DNA from: Guillardia theta CCMP2712
Taxonomy: Eukaryota > Protista > Cryptophyta
DNA: 64,000 bases
Direction: 5' to 3'
Assembly (NCBI RefSeq): GCF_000315625.1
Contig: NW_005434635.1
Coordinates: 1 to 64,000 of the forward strand
Shown here: positions 1 through 37,027 of the stretch, in pieces
Numbering within the stretch: position 1 is the first letter of the stretch
How the letters are laid out: each line of letters begins with the position of its first letter
Notes under the pieces: generated by a model
Databases searched by the model: none
Told to the model about the DNA's origin: nothing
The model's input: only the letters and a program-made list of their open reading frames with translations
Position numbers and translations under genes: made by a program

Positions 1-2102
1 CTGCAACAAGCCGAATCAGTGGTCAAGTCGTTTGGGCCTCTGCCCCGCCCTCGCCCTACCCCGTCCTGCTACTCTCGACCCTCTGCCGCACGCTTGCTCC
101 TGACTTTGCGCAGCCTTGCCTGCCTGTCTTGCTGCCTGCCTGCGCCCCTCTTGCCTGCCTGCCTGCGACCCTCTTGCCTGCCTGCCTGCCTGCCTGTCTT
201 GGTCTGCCTCTGGCTACCGTCGCTACTCACATGCAAGACCCGTCGGCTCCTTGGCACCGGCCGTGCCCGCTGCAGTTGCCGTCTACCGTACAGCCCGCCT
301 CGCAGCTCGCCCCGTACTGGTCCTCCCGGCAAGGCGAGCAGGTCCGGCCTCCGAAGCCTCCCTTGCACTCGCACCTCCCCTCCCGACACTCTCCCCGCTC
401 CTCCCCGCCGCAGTCTGCCGCGCTGCTGCAGTAGCCTCCCGGNNNNNNNNNNNNNNNNNNNNNNNNNNNNNNNNNNNNNNNNNNNNNNNNNNNNNNNNNN
501 NNNNNNNNNNNNNNNNNNNNNNNNNNNNNNNNNNNNNNNNNNNNNNNNNNNNNNNNNNNNNNNNNNNNNNNNNNNNNNNNNNNNNNNNNNNNNNNNNNNN
601 NNNNNNNNNNNNNNNNNNNNNNNNNNNNNNNNNNNNNNNNNNNNNNNNNNNNNNNNNNNNNNNNNNNNNNNNNNNNNNNNNNNNNNNNNNNNNNNNNNNN
701 NNNNNNNNNNNNNNNNNNNNNNNNNNNNNNNNNNNNNNNNNNNNNNNNNNNNNNNNNNNNNNNNNNNNNNNNNNNNNNNNNNNNNNNNNNNNNNNNNNNN
801 NNNNNNNNNNNNNNNNNNNNNNNNNNNNNNNNNNNNNNNNNNNNNNNNNNNNNNNNNNNNNNNNNNNNNNNNNNNNNNNNNNNNNNNNNNNNNNNNNNNN
901 NNNNNNNNNNNNNNNNNNNNNNNNNNNNNNNNNNNNNNNNNNNNNNNNNNNNNNNNNNNNNNNNNNNNNNNNNNNNNNNNNNNNNNNNCTGCCCGCAAGT
1001 CGTCAGCGCCTCTGCCCCGCCCTCGCCCTACCCCGTCCTGCTACTCCCGACCCTCTGCCGCTCGCATTGCGATTAGACTTCTAAACCCTTGCCTGCCTGT
1101 CTTGCTGCCTGCCCGCGCCCCTCTTGCCTGCCTGCCTGCCTGCGACCCTCTTGCCTGCCTGCCTGCGCCCCTCTTGCCTGCCTGCCTGTTTGCCTGTCTT
1201 GGTCTGCCTCTGGCTACCGTCGCTACTCACATGCAAGACCCGTCGGCTCCTCGGCACCGGCCGTGCCCGCTGCAGTTGCCGTCTACCGTACAGCCCGCCT
1301 CGCAGCTCGCCCCGTACTGGTCCTCCCGGCAAGGCGAGCAGGTCCGGCCTCCGAAGCCTCCCTTGCACTCGCACCTCCCCTCCCGACACTCTCCCCGCTC
1401 CTCCCCGCCGCAGTCTGCCGCGCTGCTGCAGTAGCCTCCCGGCCTGCCTACCTCGCTGGTCTCGATGGAGCAGTTATGGCCCGTGTATCCCGTAGCGCAT
1501 CTGCCCGCAAGTCGTCAGCGCCTCTGCCCCGCCCTCGCCCTACCCCGTCCTGCTACTCCCGACCCTCTGCCGCTCGCTTGCTCCTGACTTTGCGCAGCCT
1601 TGCCTGCCTGTCTTGCTGCCTGCCCGCGCCCCTCTTGCCTGCCTGCCTGCCTGCCTGCCTGTCTTGGTCTGCCTCTGGCTACCGTCGCTACTCACATGCA
1701 AGACCCGTCGGCTCCTCGGCACCGGCCGTGCCCGCTGCAGTTGCCGTCTACCGTACAGCCCGCCTCGCAGCTCGCCCCGTACTGGTCCTCCCGGCAAGGC
1801 GAGCAGGTCCGGCCTCCGAAGCCTCCCTTGCACTCGCACCTCCCCTCCCGACACTCTCCCCGCTCCTCCCCGCCGCAGTCTGCCGCGCTGCTGCAGTAGC
1901 CTCCCGGCCTGCCTACCTCGCTGGTCTCGATGGAGCAGTTATGGCCCGTGTATCCCGTAGCGCATCTGCCCGCAAGTCGTCAGCGCCTCTGCCCCGCCCT
2001 CGCCCTACCCCGTCCTGCTACTCCCGACCCTCTGCCGCTCGCTTGCTCCTGACTTTGCGCAGCCTTGCCTGCCTGTCTTGCTGCCTGCCTGCGCCCCTCT
2101 TG

Positions 2103-2152
<50 letters not shown>

Positions 2153-3945
2153 TTGGTCTGCCTCTGGCTACCGTCGCTACTCACATGCAAGACCCGTCGG
2201 CTCCTTGGCACCGGCCGTGCCCGCTGCAGTTGCCGTCTACCGTACAGCCCGCCTCGCAGCTCGCCCCGTACTGGTCCTCCCGGCAAGGCGAGCAGGTCCG
2301 GCCTCCGAAGCCTCCCTTGCACTCGCACCTCCCCTCCCGACACTCTCCCCGCTCCTCCCCGCCGCAGTCTGCCGCGCTGCTGCAGTAGCCTCCCGGCCTG
2401 CCTACCTCGCTGGTCTCGATGGAGCAGTTATGGCCCGTGTATCCCGTAGCGCATCTGCCCGCAAGTCGTCAGCGCCTCTGCCCCGCCCTCGCCCTACCCC
2501 GTCCTGCTACTCCCGACCCTCTGCCGCTCGCTTGCTCCTGACTTTGCGCAGCCTTGCCTGCCTGTCTTGCTGCCTGCCTGCGCCCCTCTTGCCTGCCTGC
2601 CTGCCTGCCTGCCTGTCTTGGTCTGCCTCTGGCTACCGTCGCTACTCACATGCAAGACCCGTCGGCTCCTTGGCACCGGCCGTGCCCGCTGCAGTTGCCG
2701 TCTACCGTACAGCCCGCCTCGCAGCTCGCCCCGTACTGGTCCTCCCGGCAAGGCGAGCAGGTCCGGCCTCCGAAGCCTCCCTTGCACTCGCACCTCCCCT
2801 CCCGACACTCTCCCCGCTCCTCCCCGCCGCAGTCTGCCGCGCTGCTGCAGTAGCCTCCCGGCCTGCCTACCTCGCTGGTCTCGATGGAGCAGTTATGGCC
2901 CGTGTATCCCGTAGCGCATCTGCCCGCAAGTCGTCAGCGCCTCTGCCCCGCCCTCGCCCTACCCCGTCCTGCTACTCCCGACCCTCTGCCGCTCGCTTGC
3001 TCCTGACTTTGCGCAGCCTTGCCTGCCTGTCTTGCTGCCTGCCCGCGCCCCTCTTGCCTGCCTGCCTGCCTGCGCCCCTATTGCCTGCCTGCCTGTCTTG
3101 GTCTGTCTTGGTCTGCCTCTGGCTACCGTCGCTACTCACATGCAAGACCCGTCGGCTCCTCGGCACCGGCCGTGCCCGCTGCAGTTGCCGTCTACCGTAC
3201 AGCCCGCCTCGCAGCTCGCCCCGTACTGGTCCTCCCGGCAAGGCGAGCAGGTCCGGCCTCCGAAGCCTCCCTTGCACTCGCACCTCCCCTCCCGACACTC
3301 TCCCCGCTCCTTCCCGCCGCAGTCTGCCGCGCTGCTGCAGTAGCCTCCCGGCCTGCCTACCTCGCTGGTCTCGATGGAGCAGTTATGGCCCGTGTATCCC
3401 GTAGCGCATCTGCCCGCAAGTCGTCAGCGCCTCTGCCCCGCCCTCGCCCTACCCCGTCCTGCTACTCCCGACCCTCTGCCACTCGCTTGCTCCTGACTTT
3501 GCGCAGCCTTGCCTGCCTGTCTTGCTGCCTGCCTGCGCCCCTCTTGCCTGCCTGCCTGCCTGCCTGCCCGCCTGCCTGTCTGCCTGCCTGCCTGCTTGCC
3601 TGCCTGTCTTGGTCTGCCTCTGGCTACCGTCGCTACTCACATGCAAGACCCGTCGGCTCCTCGGCACCTTCCATGTGCGCTGCAGTTTGTGTACGAGTCA
3701 CAGAATATGTTGCAATCAAAACCAAAGGTGGTTTGTCGGCAGATATCGTTTTCTGTTTCATTTCTGTTGCTGGTTGACATGTTTCCACAATCAATGCATT
3801 CTGTTGATACATCGTTGTTTCTGTCAATTGTTTTTGTGTCTGAAGGAAGGTTTGTACCTCGGATTTCTCGGTTTCCTTCGACACACAACAACAAAGAGAT
3901 GAAAATGATCATCATCTTCCTACGATGAAAGTCCTTCCATGCCAT
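1..3945 (-). CDS. Secreted/surface EGF-like (laminin/tenascin-type) repeat protein; multi-exon, 3' part runs off the left edge of the window
   Basis: Exon 1 (3945-3641) reads MAWKDFHRRKMMIIFISLLLCVEG (signal peptide)...CRQTTFGFDCNIFCDSYTNCSAHGRCRGADGSC, followed by a GTGAGT donor. Near-identical 270-nt exons follow at 3409-3140, 2919-2650, 2454-2185, 1965-1696 and 1500-1231, plus a partial copy from the gap edge to 231. Each is flanked by GCTGAC...GGGCAG and GTGAGT and reads ICATGYTGHNCSIETSEVGRPGGYCSSAADCGGEERGECREGRCECKGGFGGRTCSPCREDQYGASCEAGCTVDGNCSGHGRCRGADGSC. The last intron (230-1) ends in TTGCAG at position 1. Confidence 0.88.
36..3668. repeat. Tandem array of 465-512 bp units (exon+intron duplications) with an internal (CCTG)n microsatellite
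   Basis: Unit starts (ctgcccgcaagtcgtcagcg) lie at 989, 1501, 1966, 2455, 2920 and 3410, giving spacings of 512, 465, 489, 465 and 490. The length variation is confined to the CCTG-rich part. Confidence 0.97.
443..988. other. Assembly gap (546 N) inside the tandem array
   Basis: Run of N. Confidence 1.
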
Positions 3946-7579: not shown

Positions 7580-10004
7580 CTACCGGCAGATGTGCACAAT
7601 CTCGGCCACGGTCTGCTGCATCGACATTTCCAAATGCTGCATCTCCCTGGCAAGATCTCCGAGGCCCTCAGGCTCTGCATCCATGACTGCAAGGTCCTGG
7701 ACAGCATCCATGATATCAGTGTCATCTCCTCGTGTCTTGGCAACTCCGCGCAGGGCCTCAACAGCGCTAAAGGGTCCTGAGATCGAGGCAGCCGGATCCT
7801 CCTGCCTCGATGTGTCCTCAACCTGCAATCCTTCGGCCAAACCGACGATACCGAACTGCCTGGCTCCAAATCTCCTGTATACTCCATCCTTGGCTATCAA
7901 CTCGTCATGGGTTCCGGACTCGACAACCTTGCCACCCTGAATCACGCTGATAATGTCTGCATTGCGGATTGTAGAGAGACGATGAGCAACGACAACGCAA
8001 GTCCTTCCGACCATAAGACGATCCAAAGCTTCCTGTACCAGCTTCTCACTCTCCGCATCCAAGGAGCTGGTGGCTTCATCGAGCAAAAGGATCTTGGGAT
8101 CCTTCAACAAGGCGCGAGCAATGGCAATGCGCTGCTTCTGTCCTCCTGAAAGCATTACACCACGCTCTCCGCACTGGGCATCATAGCCTTGGGGCAAAGC
8201 CTGGATGAAGTCATGGGCATTCGCCAAACGAGCAGCCTGCTCAACGCGGGCATGAGTGCAAATCTTGGATCCGTACATGATGTTGTCCTCGATAGACATG
8301 GCAAACAGGACTGGCTCCTGCTGCACCAGACCGACCTGGTCACGGAGCCACTGGGGATCATACTTCAGGATGTCCATTCCGTCGATAAGGATGGAGCCTC
8401 CCTGGCAATCGTAGAAACGCTCGATGAGATAGATGAAGGTGGACTTGCCGCATCCAGAGGCGCCAACAAGGGCAAGAGTCTTACCAGGGGGAAGATTGAC
8501 AGAGAGGCCGTTCATGATCTTGATCTTGGGCCTGGATGGGTAATGGAAGTGCACATCCTTGAACTCAATGTGTCCTTCAATCCCGTTGGGAGCAATGTAA
8601 CCTCCATCGTAGTTGACAGCTGGAACACGATCCAACAACTCGAAGATACGACCAGAAGCTCCGATCGCCTCCATGAATTGAGGAAAGATGGAGATCAAGG
8701 AGGAGAAGGCAAACACAGACTGGAGAGCGAAAAGCATGTACGACACGAGACCACCAACAGACATCTGATTTTGGAAGATCAACTGACCACCATACCACAT
8801 CGCGACCAAGATACAAGAATCTCCAGCCAAGTTCGTGATGGACGACAATCCACCAGCAATCCACGCCCTGCGCTTGATGATGAGGTAGGAAATGTTGATC
8901 TTGTCAGCGTAATGAGAAATTTCCTTCTCTTCCATAACGTAGGAACGAACTGTACGAATGTTGGACAGGGTTTCATCGGCCTTGGAGCCAGCATCGGCCA
9001 ACGCAATCAACTCTTGCTCAGTCAAAATCTTCATACAGAAACCTTGAAGGAACATGCAAACAGCAATCACAGGGATGAGCGACAGAACAACCAAGGTCAA
9101 CTTCCAGTTGTACGTGAAAATGGCAATCAACCCAATGACAACCTGGCACAAGGGAATGAACCATCCGGCAAGATTTGCAGTCACCACCATCTGAATGACC
9201 TCGGTATCGGTCGAAAGACGGTTGAGAAGCTCACCAACTCTGACAGTATCAAAGAAAGCGACATCCTGACGAAGCATGTTTCTAAGAACCAGGGTCCTGA
9301 GGCGGCACGAGCAACGGGTTGCCGCAATGGTATACAGAACCGAGGAGAACAACGTGAGCATACAATCAGCCACGTAGATACAGAGCAAGTAAAGAGTGAA
9401 TGTAGTAACTGCCGACTTTCCTGCATTCAGGGAGGAATAATGAACGGCGTTGATGACCATACCAACGAAAATGTTCTGAGACATATGCAAAAAAGCAGAA
9501 ATGGATGCCAAAAAGGTGGCAGAAATAACGAGTGGCAACTCAGGCTTGCCGAAACGCAACAAGCGCATGACTGTTGGTTTCTTCTGCTTGTAGGTGTCAT
9601 CTTCAGGTCCATCGTAGTCACTTTCTCCCATCTCGCTCTGAGGGGGAGCATCTTCGAACTAACGAAAACGAGTCAGACTCCAATCAGGGTTAGGTATAAG
9701 GTGAGAGGAGAGAAGCCGACAGTTGAAGGAAGCAACCAGGATAAAGAGCTATGGGGAAAGAATTCCGATCTATCACGGAAAAGGATCTTGCATACAAAGG
9801 AACATCACAGAGAGAGACTTCGAGGGCTAGCAAGGATGATGGACAGAATGACTGGCCACAACAAGAGATAACACGTCGAATGAGGTCAGGAGGTGCGCGA
9901 AGGAAGAGAGGAAAAGGAGGAGGAGGAGGACTCACGGTGCTGCCATCCGTCTCGGTGTCAAGCAGCTTCCCCTCGCTCTGAGAGTAGCGATCGACCTCGG
10001 ACAT
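7580..10004 (-). CDS. ABC transporter subfamily B half-transporter (TMD+NBD; TAP/MDL1/ABCB10-like)
   Basis: Walker A GASGCGKST, Q-loop QQEPVLF, signature LSGGQKQR, Walker B ILLLDEATS, H-loop AHRLST, six-helix TMD. A 23-codon first exon (10004-9936) joins in frame via GT-AG intron 9935-9659. Confidence 0.95.
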
Positions 10005-28917: not shown

Positions 28918-29939
28918 CTAGCTGGGAAAGCTTGGTTTCAACGTGATCACCATCCCGCCCTCTTGATCCTGCGCCACATGAGCTCAGTCAGCAGTAGCAC
29001 GGGAGGGAACTGAGCCGTTACCTTGATGGTCTGCGAGTACATGGGCTTGAGGAAGGTGAGGGGAGGGTAAAGCACTTCCTGTCAGGTTGTGCACGTGACC
29101 CCCTTCCTCCTCTGCTTTCACCATCGTCACCTGCTCATCCGGGAAAGTTGAGAGCCACTGAATGTTTGCTCCGAGCTCCATTGGACTGTCAACCTTTGAC
29201 ACAACAGAGTCAGGCAGATCTGCTGCATGTCAAAGTTCCTACGCGGATGCGGAAGAGAAGGGGAGTCCCAGAGTTCGCGTATCCTGCGGCAGAAGCTTTT
29301 GGCTGATGGAGAGGTGAGAGGAAAGGTAACCTGCGACCACTGACAGTTCCTCTGATGTCGACATGCATGCCATCTCCGTCCCTGCGATCGCTCAGCTTCA
29401 TCACAGCAACGGGCAGAGGAGGAAGAGGTCACCTCCCATCCTCAGGAAGTCCTCATTGACGGTCCTGTTCTTCATCCCCCTCCACAGATACCTGCTTGCT
29501 CTCTCAACCCTCCCAACTCCCAGCACTCCCTCACCTGCTCGTGAACTTGTTGTTTCCTGACAGGTGGACAGCTCGGAGCTTCTTGAGACCCTAGGAGGGA
29601 TTGAGGGACAAGAGAAGGGTTGAAAAGGAATGGGAGGGTATGAAAGAGGGGAGTGGAGGGTGGGGGGGGAAAAGGAGGGAAGTGAGAGGGGGAGAGAAGA
29701 GAAGAAGAGGAGGAGGGCGAGCAGTGAGCAGCAAACCTCATAGATGAAGTAGGTAGTGAGAGATCTGAAGGTTTGCAAGGTCAAGAGGTCAACACGAGCA
29801 TTTTTTATCGTCATCGCTCACAAGGGGTGGGGAGTGACTTTGGCTCTCAGAGGTCCGTTGATTGCCCTGAAAGAGCTTGTGGTATAGAGTCTGAGGGCTG
29901 CCACCTGAGGTCTGAGTCAGCCACAGTCGGCCGCTCCCC

Positions 29940-29986
<47 letters not shown>

Positions 29987-32900
29987 CGTGTCGTCTCCGT
30001 CCACACACCCCTCCTCGACTTGTCAATCTCTTGTTCAACATTCACCTCGTATTTCTGGAGCTGAGCTGTTCGAGCATACGGGTGGCTGTGGAAGTAGTCC
30101 AGTTTGTATCCAGCATGTCCCTGGCCAGGAGGGTGAGGACAGGCTTTCTTGCAGTAGTCTTGTCCCACCTTGTCGCGTGTCGTCTTCCTCCCATCATTCC
30201 CTATCATCTCCACCTCCTCCGCTGCCCCGTTGATCACGTACTCCGCGTTTTCAACATCTTCCTGCGTCACCCATTCCTGACAGTCAACGGCTGCTTGTCG
30301 GATCTGCAAGACAAGAGCATCAGCCTCGTTCCCTCCACACTCTCGTCTAGCCTCATCGAGCATCTTCTGCAAGCAAGACCCCGGATCCCTCAAGGCGTTG
30401 GATCTCTGCGGCAGCAAGTCTGACAGGGTTCGAGGGTCACCCGTCTTCTAACCTTGGTTTCGTCCATGCCGATGGCGAACAAAATCCCCAAGGCGGCGCC
30501 AGCACTGCAGTCACAGTCAGCCTCCTGCTGCACCCCAGCAGCAGGTGTAAAGATGACTCATCGGGCTCACCCCTCTGAGAAGAGCGCTTGATCCGGCATC
30601 CCGTCCGAGACAAACTTGTCCATCTTGTTCGAAAGGACTAGACCGACACCGCAACGTCGGGTCAGTACTCGGAAAGTGGGGGGAGAGAGAAATCGGATGT
30701 GAAAAGCATGAAGAAGAATCGAAAGATTAGAAGCGCACAAGTGAAAAGTTGGGCAGGAAGAGAGAGGGAAGGAAGAGGAGGATGAGCCTTGAGGGTCCAA
30801 CACCTGATCTCATCGACTTTTGTCTAAGAGAAGACAACTCTATGATATGAATAGGAGCATCGTATTTCATTGGCTCGAATATCTGGTCGGCATTCTGAAA
30901 GACGAAGTTTCCAACTCCCAGAGGCCGTGAGTTCTCATCCAACATTGCCTTCTTCCCCACCGGAAAGTATTCTGACTTCTCCCACTGCCTGTGGCGGAAG
31001 GCGAAACCTCCCGACTTAGTGTAGATATGATCACCCACAAACTCAGAAGGGCAGATCCAAGCGAAATGCGTGAAGCCCTGGGACCGGAACCTTTCCTCTG
31101 TCACTGATACCCACCGTTTCCCCTCATCGATGCTACTGATGGCTGTGTCAGGCAGCTTGGAAGGAGCTCCGACATAGAGAACTTTTGCATTTTCCTTCAT
31201 CTCTCCAAGGTAGATAGCATTGATAGCGATGATGTCGTACTTGTGATCGAAGTAGACGAATCCCCCATTGAGCAGCCAGTTACAGAAGGGATCTCCCCAG
31301 TCCATCGCACGAGGTCTTGTGCGATCCTCTGAGCCTTGTGCGATCTTGAGGGACCGGAGAAGTTGGTCGCAGCTCTTTCGAAGTTCATCACATGACCTGT
31401 GGGGCATGAAGAGGTAGCCGCCGAAGATCTCGTTCAATCTCGATTTCGTCAGACCTCCTTCAATCTTCGAGTCGTTTGCAGCAAAGAGCTTCTTGATGAT
31501 TTGAAATCTTATCCCCGGGACAAAATAATTCCCCTTTGATGACTTCCACGAATGCTTGATCACCAGGACCTTCACATGCGAGCTCGAATCCAGCAACCAC
31601 TCAGATACGATATCGATCCCGAGGATGTCATTGTCAAGGGCGTTCTTGTGCTTGCCCAACATCTCAATCTCCTCCAAGCTGAAGTTGAAAGAAATTTTCC
31701 CTTCCTCACCTTCCAAGTGCAGCAACTGGGCGAAATCTCTCAAAAGATCTTGTCTCCTGTCCTGAATAAGATGGAATGAGGTCGCTAAATCAAGTTTGAG
31801 ATTTAAGATGAGCGCAATGCCCTTTTCTTTCTTCACTTCATCTGGAGGGCTTACAACGCTCACGTCAAGGTTGAGATTGCCTTCGAACTCAGTGGAAAGT
31901 AGTGGGTAGCAGAAGGCGTAGAAATGGGCGTCTTGGGGAATCGACGCCTTCACCCGAGCTTCTGGTGGAAGCGTCACCGAGTGGATAGGAGATGCGATCA
32001 TCTCAATGTATCCCCGCTGTTCCAGACATATGTTGACGAAATCTTCTTCCTTGAGCTCCTCTTGGTCTGCATCACAAGCGTCTTGTATCTGCTTGGCAAA
32101 AGCTTCGGACAAGATTGCCCTGCAGGTTTCATCCGTGAGCAGCTTCGAGCGATAAACTGACTTGCTTTCGGGATTCGCAAGATGCTGGAACAGCCAAATA
32201 AATTCCTGAGACAGAAGGTCATATTTCAATGTCTGCAAATTCGCCATGGAGTTGTAAATGTTTCCTGTGTTGAAAGCTTGTGCGTCAAGGTTAAAACTAA
32301 TTCGATTGCCAGCCGAGTGCGTCATGTCATGCTTGTCTTGCGGATTGAGCAATTCACGGAACTTGGATATGTTGGCGCATTCTTTCACTTCCAGGAGCAG
32401 AAAAGGCGAGTTGATCATTCTAACATATCCTTTACCAGCATACGCTTGTAGACCCAGCAGCTGCATAATCCCTTCTTTGTTTGGCGTGGACTTCTTGGAC
32501 AATCGATCCAAATTGTCCCAGGTCCACGTGCTGGTGTCTTTGTCTATCAGGTTCGGCTTTTTTTTCTTAGGATCTGTGACGCACCCAGCAAATTTGAACA
32601 AGTCATGCTTCAGCTGCCTACAGTCGTCGACATCGAACAATCCTGTCAACCCTTGCACAACCTTGCGCTGTTCAGCGGATAGGGCAGGGTCTTTCACTTC
32701 TATTTCTAGTATTTGTGCCTGAGTTCCAGCCTGATTCAGCTCTCGTTGCTCTTGAAGAAGTTGTTGCTTGTACTTCTTTTTCAGTTCCTGATTATCATAG
32801 TCGTCGTGCAAGTTTTCAACAATTCTGGAAGTTTTTTCGATCAAATCCTCCTTCACGGATTCGAGCAAGGAAAGCATGAAGGTTTCCAGCTTTCGTTCTT

Positions 32901-33504
32901 TTAACATTTCTGGTGATGGGAATGTCTTTGTCATAAATCAAACATTGTCGAAGAAGACTTACCTTGAAGCTCCTTCTCCGGCGCCAGCGTAAGGAATCCA
33001 CTCTTTGCTTCCAGCATATCTTGCAAGTCCAAAAACGAGTAAAAGCAAGCAAGGGATTTTTTACTTGTGATGAAAACGTCATTTACAGCCTTGCGGAACT
33101 CTTCCCTTTTAATTATTTTCGGTTCTCCATCTTTGAGCTGCTTGATGAGCTCATCCCTTGCATCCTGTCGCCAGTTCGCGAACATGTCAAGTTTTCCAGA
33201 ATCAAGTTCCCCCTGGTGATGAGCGCAGTCATAACTCAATGCAACCATGATGGGCGAGATCTGTAGAATAAACTCATACCTGGAAGCGCTCAAGTTCTTC
33301 GGGACCCCACACCTGTTTGCTCCCTTTAAGTTTGTTGAAGACTTTGTTCATCTCTTGTAGAAACATCTCATTTTGCGAATCATTCTGTCCGCGATTCGAG
33401 TAACTTTTAAGATGAATCTCACTGCTTGTACCATCCTCTTGGCTGCTTTCTCCTGTCTTCTCCTCCCTCTCCACCCTCCTCGCACGGCTGTTCCCCGCAC
33501 CCAT
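28918..33504 (-). CDS. Large putatively myristoylated protein with C-terminal ARTC-type (R-S-ExE) mono-ADP-ribosyltransferase domain, about 14 exons
   Basis: Starts MGAGNS. The long exon joins via intron 30803-30638 (GT...ACTGAC...CTAG) in frame to VLSNKMDKF. The spliced C-terminus reads AQLQKYEVAALRLYTTSSFRAINGPLR...GLKKLRAV...YLWRGMK...GGTEMACMSTS...PLLFRI...GANIQWLSTFPDEQEVLYPPLTFL. TAG at 28920-28918. Confidence 0.82.
29942..29985. repeat. (CTG/CAG)~14 microsatellite inside intron 30045-29905 of the ART gene
   Basis: Perfect trinucleotide run. The flanking exons join as KYE|VAALRLY. Confidence 0.9.
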
Positions 33505-34396
33505 GTTGAGGAAGTTGATTCTGGCAATGGGCGCGTTGTAAAAAAACCTCACTGTCAATTGTGAGGCAGCATTGATCATATAGGGCGACCAACTACCTTC
33601 TGACTGGGGGCAGCAACGGCATTCCCGTTTCGTGTCCGACCTCCCAGGTGAACTGGTTGATTTTAGTCTCCGATACTAGCTACTGGCCGGTACATCCGTG
33701 AGGTACATTCCATGACAGACTCGATTCTCCAAGGTTGAAATGGTGGCCTATCGGCAGTCGGCCGGGACTACTTTCAGTAATGCATCAGGCCCGGTCCGCG
33801 GGCCCCGGGCCCGACCCGTCACGGTCCGAGGAGACTCAGTGACCCGGCGGCCGCGCCCACCGGCCCAGCGGACTCCGCCGGGGAGCCTCCGTAGAATATC
33901 CGCCGGGCCGTACCGTGACTCAGAGGCCCGGCGGCGTCACGTCCGATCGTAGCCGAAGACAAGGGGTACAAGAACGAAGATCAGAACAATGCTGCTCTAG
34001 GAGAGGAGGCGAGGGGTAAGGGGGAGGCAGAGAGTGAGTATGGAGGATAGTGAATGGGTATGATAGAGCAAGAACAGATTCGAGAGAGGAGCTGATAGAT
34101 TGAGTCCTACAGCATATCAGAGAGACAGATAGTACAAGTTTTAAAGGAGGGGGACAACGAGGAAAGTGAATACAGCAGAAGGTTATCGGAAAGATCGAAA
34201 GTGAGAGGCTATCCCTTCCCAACATGTTCTAGGTGAAGCTGTTCTCTGGCAAGAGTGTCCTTGTCCTGCGAGAGGAAATCGGTGCTTCATCATGGATGTG
34301 GCGTTCCATCGTGGGAACAGAAGGAAGCGAATAGGAACCATTCTGTTGTGTCGAGCACTATCTGCTCTATTTCATCATAACGTGTTTGAGCAGACC

Positions 34397-37027
<2,631 letters not shown>

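Follow-up and report, generated by a model that had tools for sequence, protein, structure and literature searches.

ADP-ribosyltransferases (ARTs) of the R-S-E clade are already known from microbial eukaryotes, and algal proteins already carry automatic ART labels. A 2010 review noted that an intracellular arginine-specific ART had yet to be characterised and that unicellular eukaryotes seemed to lack such enzymes (PMC3102197); later comparative work lists R-S-E ARTs in some eukaryotes (PMC3482391). Here we analyse a gene of the cryptophyte Guillardia theta CCMP2712, located on the minus strand at 33504-28918 of a 64-kb window (the first 64,000 nucleotides of contig NW_005434635.1), that is predicted to join an ART to a mobile domain, referred to here as X. 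Our preferred interpretation, to which we assign a probability of about 0.5, is that one spliced gene produces an intracellular, probably myristoylated arginine ART gated by X. The ART alone is not new, but neither X nor its intracellular combination with an ART appears to have been described: our literature search found no description of the gene, the algal X-ART family or X, although a natural-history review of ARTs or its supplements may mention the family.

Over the full length of the ART domain, helical N-terminal part included, the structures that match most closely are those of the vertebrate ecto-ARTs (ARTC1/ARTC2.2/ARTC5; PDB 1gxy; PF01129), which like this gene are eukaryotic, intron-rich and R-S-ExE-bearing. 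The G. theta protein differs from them in its low identity (~18%), in its ~870 residues of N-terminal domains and, by hydropathy scan, in having no signal peptide or glycosylphosphatidylinositol (GPI) tail. Bacterial intracellular arginine ARTs (HopU1, XopAI, ExoS, Vis, C2/VIP2, SpvB and the 6drh pair; PF03496), which act in the cytosol, share the fold and the signature (Z 10-15; Foldseek E ~1e-6 to 1e-5); unlike them, this gene is eukaryotic and chromosomal, is interrupted by 16 spliceosomal introns, sits among algal neighbours, has eukaryotic relatives and comes with no delivery or binding component. Motif and modelled fold suggest that the domain acts in the manner of HopU1, ExoS and other arginine ARTs that operate inside cells, yet it is neither a bacterial toxin nor an ecto-ART. 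A broader protist R-S-ExE ART family (loci L004-L013), many of whose members are auto-annotated in UniProt as NAD(P)+-arginine ARTs, shares the LWRG / GGxExxxMSTS / FPxExExLYPP layout; the X-linked ARTs differ from it in their DSPM and C-terminal KPSFPS/T motifs.

Gene structure and the exon 3 to exon 4 junction

We built the gene model by reading the minus strand and aligning relatives to it. The model runs from an ATG at 33504 to a TAG at 28918, and its 17 exons (3453 nt) encode 1150 residues with a single stop at the end. Introns are 43-166 nt long; 15 of the 16 are GT-AG and one (30351-30304) is GC-AG, and a branch-point-like motif occurs in 11 of the 16 versus 0.27 per 40-nt window of exon 3. 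The large exon 3 is joined in frame to exon 4 by a pyrimidine-rich, phase 1 GT..AG intron of 166 nt (30803-30638). The original prediction, made from the nucleotide letters, had proposed this link; its coordinates were exact, the frame is open to 28918, and the peptides it had read from the exons beyond (EVAALRLYT, LWRG, MSTS and FPDEQEVLYPP) are all in frame in the spliced model, which begins MGAGNS. Other particulars needed correction: there are 14 exons downstream of this intron rather than about 11, the protein is shorter than the ~1200 residues estimated, and the 735-residue open reading frame (ORF) thought to be an orphan has 345 relatives at E<=0.001. Nor is the gene as hidden as had been proposed, since public model GUITHDRAFT_139529 already crosses the junction, though mis-spliced and unnamed.

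This public model (P0155; XP_005831560; UniProt L1J928) has 1141 residues, is labelled hypothetical or uncharacterized with no domain named, and scores 20.7 against the Pfam ART model, below the cut-off of 22.3. It already joins exon 3 to the ART exons and is identical to our model except in the differently spliced parts: exons 9, 10 and 14 and part of exon 2 are dropped, and introns 6 and 7 and part of intron 1 are kept. Introns 6 (30351-30304) and 7 are in-frame, 48 nt each, and absent in P0158, P0003, P0004 and P0005. The corrected exon model restores a part of the ART core that the public model lost. A CAG/CTG trinucleotide run of ~22 units at 29931-29996, within intron 8, would encode poly-Gln only upon intron retention.

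The locus is almost certainly one spliced gene, in agreement with the original prediction; beyond the open 17-exon frame, the case is carried by relatives. Across the junction and every ART exon, residues 693-1150 are colinear with the single-ORF relatives P0003 (1010 residues), P0004 and P0005, at identities of 46-49% (E 1e-135 to 1e-146), and because of this alignment the exon join is not a product of chance. A complete transcript ORF of Euglena longa (P0018) has an upstream domain X together with the ART, as do P0011 and P0043 from transcript sets. P0158, an MMETSP transcript product from the cluster of genomic call P0002, into which P0157 (named Hanusia phi) also falls, enters exon 4 past the equivalent of intron 3 and is without introns 3-12. 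Its tail matches a shifted frame of the spliced exons 14-17 with a score of 145, versus at most 64 for the unspliced sequence.

RNA data from the locus itself are sparse. Raw-read run X5 gave 39 reads over 9 kb; a few fall on exons 1-3, but the ART exons have none and no read spans a junction of the gene. As the neighbours are nearly blank as well, this run is uninformative. Contig runs X6-X8 cover both neighbour genes with spliced GT-AG joints, and at the gene hold just a 163-nt exon-3 piece (X8) and low-complexity bits; such contigs can prove presence but not absence. Runs X1-X4 continue through introns and are genomic.

Several observations concern read-through at intron 3. Retention of this intron (30727-30803) would yield an ART-less protein with a hydrophobic 25-residue tail; the same 25-residue tail is found in P0001, a 94%-identical relative, and P0002, which reads through the equivalent of intron 3 into a pyrimidine-coded tail, has a different hydrophobic sequence there. 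The shared tail probably reflects pyrimidine composition and recent divergence, and an alternative ART-less isoform could exist. P0001 and P0156 (from ENA) represent a close copy, from another strain or a paralogue, in which ~6% of exon 3 residues differ and translated introns 6-8 differ at a similar rate.

The catalytic domain and its predicted location

To place the catalytic residues we surveyed 165 representatives of the relatives, 22 of which match the ART region (2-3 of them truncated). The ARTC/R-S-E layout is present in full, with R1048 as the beta1 Arg, S1071-T-S1073 as the beta2 Ser-x-Ser and E1116 as the beta5 Glu, and so is the arginine-type Glu at position -2 of the ARTT loop (E1114-Q-E1116). 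Among relatives reaching the respective columns, the Arg is kept in 20/20, the Ser in 19/19 and both Glu of ExE in 19/19, so that the signature originally proposed is invariant among them. The triad is spread over three exons (12, 13 and 16), and intron 15 divides the ExE codons. The ART core is also the best-conserved region relative to P0158 (85/95 identical, versus 114/240 at the N-terminus).

The ART fold expected for the C-terminal part was found in relative P0005, which is 49% identical to the gene model over residues 694-1150. Its AlphaFold2 model has a mean predicted local distance difference test (pLDDT) of 86.9 and a predicted template modelling score (pTM) of 0.83, and it matches ART2.2 (PDB 1gxy) with Z 17.1 and a root-mean-square deviation of 3.0 over 206 aligned residues, where unrelated rows reach Z ~4-5. 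XopAI, HopU1, an ART toxin/immunity pair (6drh) and ExoS are the next fold matches, and Foldseek recovered HopU1, C3 and others at E ~1e-6. The ART2.2 match begins at the place equivalent to exons 4-8. By motif and modelled fold, the catalytic domain belongs to the R-S-E/ARTC clade, and the protein is likely an active transferase. Arginine is the probable acceptor on the same kind of evidence; in five published pairs, R-S-EXE tells the arginine-specific ART apart from its relative (PMC3102197).

A quick tree placed the X-linked ARTs in one group (21 rows; Shimodaira-Hasegawa-like approximate likelihood ratio test support 94) apart from nine related ARTs, which lie on metagenome contigs without X; three truncated rows were excluded. 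This separate group therefore represents a subfamily of the wider protist R-S-ExE family. Prokaryotic genomes and viral contigs yielded no relative in pattern-seeded scans, although these are weak negatives.

The enzyme is likely intracellular, judging from its sequence. All hydropathy windows starting in the first 30 residues are at or below -1.25, and the best 19-residue window (1.63) lies inside the ART; the C-terminus coincides with the last strand of the ART, leaving no hydrophobic tail. A hydrophilic N-terminus and an end on the last ART strand mean that this is not an ecto-ART, as had been proposed in setting the protein apart from secreted, GPI-anchored ARTCs. The start MGAGNS, with Gly2 and Ser6 after an inferred start codon, fits the N-myristoylation consensus, and MGxxx[ST] stands at position 1 in P0002, P0003, P0038, P0138, P0043 and P0198. 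The MGxxxS start noted originally is thus present and common to the closest relatives; with MGxxx[ST] in 10 of 153 Met-starting representatives overall, the motif is, as far as sequence goes, a subfamily trait. From the motif there is a good chance that the protein is myristoylated. Exon 1 has a weak EF-hand_15 match (E=0.11), and relative P0038 matches EF-hand_7 at E=0.0056; an EF-like FxxxDxxxxGLLD loop occurs in P0003, P0038 and P0138, the Asp residues of which are not retained here.

Domain X, its partners and the proposed mechanism

Exon 3 has no significant Pfam match, and most of its 345 relatives share two blocks with it, residues 442-500 and 691-818. These are contiguous or nearly so elsewhere and form one domain of ~190 residues, X, which is here split by an insert of ~190 residues. 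The insert is 110/192 identical in P0158 but only 7-17/192 in P0003, P0004, P0005, P0011 and P0018. The C-terminal strand and helix of the upstream region W probably belong to X as well. A profile from 78 rows matches 158 of the 165 representatives; alignment A2 includes one stray row, P0194, and a 'Sen15' label in the P0103 cluster was rejected since it belongs to that different protein, which is without X. Across the 78 rows the Tyr of GGFxYFD, an Arg (97%), and the Trp (95%) and Glu (97%) of WxxPxE are near-invariant. X is itself an internal duplication: hhalign aligned its halves at 91.8% with a score of 34.2, compared with a best of 16.6 in 30 column shuffles.

Searches of Pfam, NCBIfam and PDB sequences returned no match to X, the hits seen being EF-hands of fused members. 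We modelled P0152, which consists almost only of X (pLDDT 87.0, pTM 0.83). The original prediction had looked to fold comparison for the nature of the N-terminal part, and here the P0152 model drew a blank: Foldseek gave no match at E<=0.001 in PDB or BFVD, and the best VIA Z was 3.5 among 48,161 chains and 3.2 among 991. On this model X is a candidate new fold. One lead came from the Atlas language-model search, which placed P0152 near the HbpS/GlcG-like haem-binding sensors (PF03928; feature score 0.91, 194 shared features); it is weak because the recognition value of 1957 lies below the 2300 mark. With the X region of P0005 as query, no feature score exceeded 0.79; X also consists of two internal repeats, unlike the HbpS/GlcG-like domain, and no HbpS-like entry is among the best 50 fold rows or among 25 of the 51 Pfam families listed. 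A GG-x(7-9)-hairpin would be a point of resemblance between the two. Of the ~850 residues originally called unrecognised, X does lack a library match, but it is a definable, mobile, family-wide domain, and it is the more novel part of the protein compared with the ART.

The partners of X are diverse. As lower bounds, given that part of the 165 representatives was scanned, we counted 22 fusions to ART, nine to zeta-toxin-type P-loop kinases, five to Ion_trans_2 potassium channels and five to nicotinamidase-like enzymes, with GalT/HIT (2), protein kinase (2), ankyrin (2), UCH (1) and a NAMPT/NAPRT start (1) being rarer; EF-hands occur too. X sits N- or C-terminal to these unrelated outputs, and five proteins carry two or three copies in tandem. 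In a quick X tree (114 rows), the copies linked to channels and those linked to nicotinamidases make up one supported group each, while a single large group takes in most ART-linked copies. Named carriers comprise cryptophytes, Euglena longa, the centrohelid Pterocystis and the dinoflagellate Durusdinium. Channels, kinases and NAD enzymes from several eukaryotic supergroups thus carry a confidently modelled domain without a library match, and X is likely a widespread, unstudied signal-input module; the ~200-residue version in the P0152 region is small enough for structure determination and ligand screening.

Some of these fusions are worth recording individually. P0216-P0221 and P0129 comprise nicotinamidase-like enzymes that carry X at the C-terminus, together with a single protein in which X immediately precedes a NAMPT/NAPRT start; the best NCBIfam and PDB hits of the nicotinamidase-like partners are to PncA, under the curated cut-off. 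These proteins are good entry points to the ligand of X. P0110, P0114, P0146, P0150 and P0154 are potassium channels of the two-pore type in which X is N-terminal and, in some, accompanied by EF-hand or IQ motifs; they are candidate ligand-gated channels. P0162, P0163 and P0200 come from NCBI records labelled as a 'Promethearchaeia archaeon' metagenome-assembled genome; they cluster with eukaryote-type X proteins and are probably eukaryotic contamination of that assembly.

We lean towards X being a ligand-binding regulator because of its varied outputs, tandem copies, two-fold symmetry, and conserved Arg, Glu and aromatic residues; GAF, PAS and CBS domains are analogous ligand-binding input modules. 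Combined with the sequence features above, this suggests a mechanism in which myristate would anchor the protein at a membrane and a signal may, going by domain context, be bound by X together with region W and the insert; X would switch ART activity in cis. The ART would then transfer ADP-ribose from NAD+ to an arginine of a nearby partner. Its likely role would be in signalling or metabolic regulation at the membrane. Three NAD-handling partners (ART, nicotinamidase and the NAMPT start) hint at an NAD-related nucleotide as the ligand, although we consider this specific identity doubtful. A broader proposal is equally speculative, namely that X has a new fold and serves protists at large as a receptor for a nucleotide signal, NAD-derived or other, with arginine ADP-ribosylation, potassium channels, kinases and NAD-salvage enzymes among its many outputs. 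If true, algae and other protists would possess an intracellular signalling system based on arginine ADP-ribosylation that has gone unrecognised, and this gene would be its writer. It is in any case a concrete candidate for an endogenous cytosolic arginine ART.

A number of points weigh against this interpretation. The insert of ~190 residues could alter or disable X in this very protein, and promiscuous fusion suits a docking or scaffold domain equally well. Both fold tests were made on relatives, P0005 and P0152, rather than on this protein. P0158 is frameshifted at the exon 13/14 boundary and is therefore itself without an encoded ExE. The MGxxx[ST] motif is at position 1 in six of 19 relatives, follows a nearby downstream Met in three and is absent in ten. 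The partner counts are skewed to ART by the query, many rows are fragments, and the NAMPT link is 30 residues of one protein. Finally, the X and ART trees are quick searches without bootstrap.

One may postulate instead that the protein is an immune or cell-suicide effector, with W and X as detectors of infection that would set the ART to poisoning some essential protein of the host or virus. Bacterial toxins and effectors are indeed among the closest solved folds, zeta-toxin-type kinases are another partner of X, and ARTs acquired by eukaryotes were often recruited to immunity according to a published survey (PMC9503650). However, the X-ART pairing has been kept between cryptophytes and the euglenid, and the ART core changes slowly; the partners of X resemble general signalling and metabolic proteins, the potassium channels and the nicotinamidase-like and GalT-like enzymes being non-immune outputs, and no NLR, TIR or similar domains occur in the ART-bearing relatives scanned. 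The neighbours, moreover, are ordinary (flanking peroxidase and malic enzyme genes, with a polycystin channel and a copine also in the window), and the 64-kb window holds no second ART or X copy. We consider an immune effector unlikely.

A rather unlikely scenario, too, is one in which the protein does have a genuine ART but X works in docking or as a scaffold, serving substrate recognition, oligomerisation or localisation (e.g., to the flagellum) with no small ligand. Promiscuity and tandem repetition are also seen in mobile protein-binding domains, X tolerates large inserts, and its conserved columns are mostly Pro, Gly and aromatic, as in a structural core. The near-invariance of the Arg and Glu over 78 diverse rows, irrespective of partner, argues for a ligand-binding X instead, as does the use of NAD or nucleotides by several partners.

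It is improbable that the C-terminal domain acts chiefly as an NAD+ glycohydrolase, or that its acceptor is something other than arginine, be it a different residue or nucleic acid. Rat ART2.2, to which the fold match is strongest, is described as an NADase in the 2010 review (PMC3102197), NADases are listed among R-S-E clade members in a later survey (PMC9503650), and X is also found with NAD-salvage enzymes. Rat ART2, however, has QXE, whereas the X-linked family has ExE in 19/19, the arginine-modifier pattern in the five pairs reported there (PMC3102197). Very improbable are two genes, a truncated ART-less isoform as main product, or a decaying locus: exon 3 does read through to the stop at 30727 with a hydrophobic tail, as in P0002, and P0158, the sole close transcript product, is out of frame past exon 13, but all 16 introns have intact splice sites, the reading frame is whole, P0158 is spliced at the equivalent of intron 3, the junction is continuous ORF in distant relatives, and pyrimidine-rich introns translate to Leu/Phe/Pro/Ser from composition alone.

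Feature coordinates and neighbouring sequence

Table 1 Features of the X-ART gene, in positions of the 64-kb window (HMM, hidden Markov model).
Feature	Positions	Strand	Description
Exon 1 (aa 1-75)	33280..33504	-	ATG at 33504, MGAGNS N-myristoylation consensus; possible degenerate EF-hand at end
Exon 2 (aa 76-158)	32963..33212	-	Helical N-terminal region; 49% match to P0002
Exon 3 (aa 159-860)	30804..32909	-	The 'orphan ORF' of the original prediction
Region W (aa 241-395)	32200..32664	-	TWTWxNL and QDKHD motifs, conserved in the ART-linked subfamily
Domain X, piece 1 (aa 442-500)	31885..32061	-	SPIHxVTLP...FxFCYP; domain-X HMM 59.6 bits
Insert of ~190 aa within domain X	31315..31884	-	Present in P0002/P0158, not in more distant relatives
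Domain X, piece 2 (aa 691-818)	30931..31314	-	GGFxYFD, R, GFTHFAWxxPxE, GGFA; HMM 145.7 bits
Intron 3 (linking)	30638..30803	-	166 nt, phase 1; read-through stops at 30727
Exons 4-8 (aa 861-988)	30046..30637	-	Linker and helical N-terminal part of ART domain
Exons 4-8 singly	30637-30571, 30504-30453, 30405-30352, 30303-30169, 30120-30046	-	
Exons 9-11 (aa 989-1043)	29535..29904	-	29904-29822, 29764-29737, 29590-29535; VAALRLYT helix region
Exon 12	29433..29491	-	LWRG; triad Arg1048 at 29481-29479
Exon 13	29331..29381	-	MSTS; Ser1071 at 29361-29359
Exons 14-15	29131..29283	-	29283-29243, 29193-29131; DSPM motif; Glu1114 (29136-29134), first Glu of ExE
Exons 16-17	28918..29078	-	29078-29022, 28968-28918; catalytic Glu1116 (29078-29076), C-terminal KPSFPS, stop TAG

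The gene lies head-to-head with the malic enzyme gene across ~900 nt (33505-34480), a region that includes a very GC-rich stretch at ~33800-33990; two presumed-RNA runs have low-depth contigs at 33983-34243. Elsewhere in the window, a 573-codon plus-strand frame at 8150-9871 overlaps a minus-strand ABC transporter, has no Pfam match and is probably a shadow frame. At 1077-3404, adjoining an N gap (443-988), there is a long ORF in a region whose ORFs recur every 465-490 nt with strong strand skew; this region looks like a tandem repeat.

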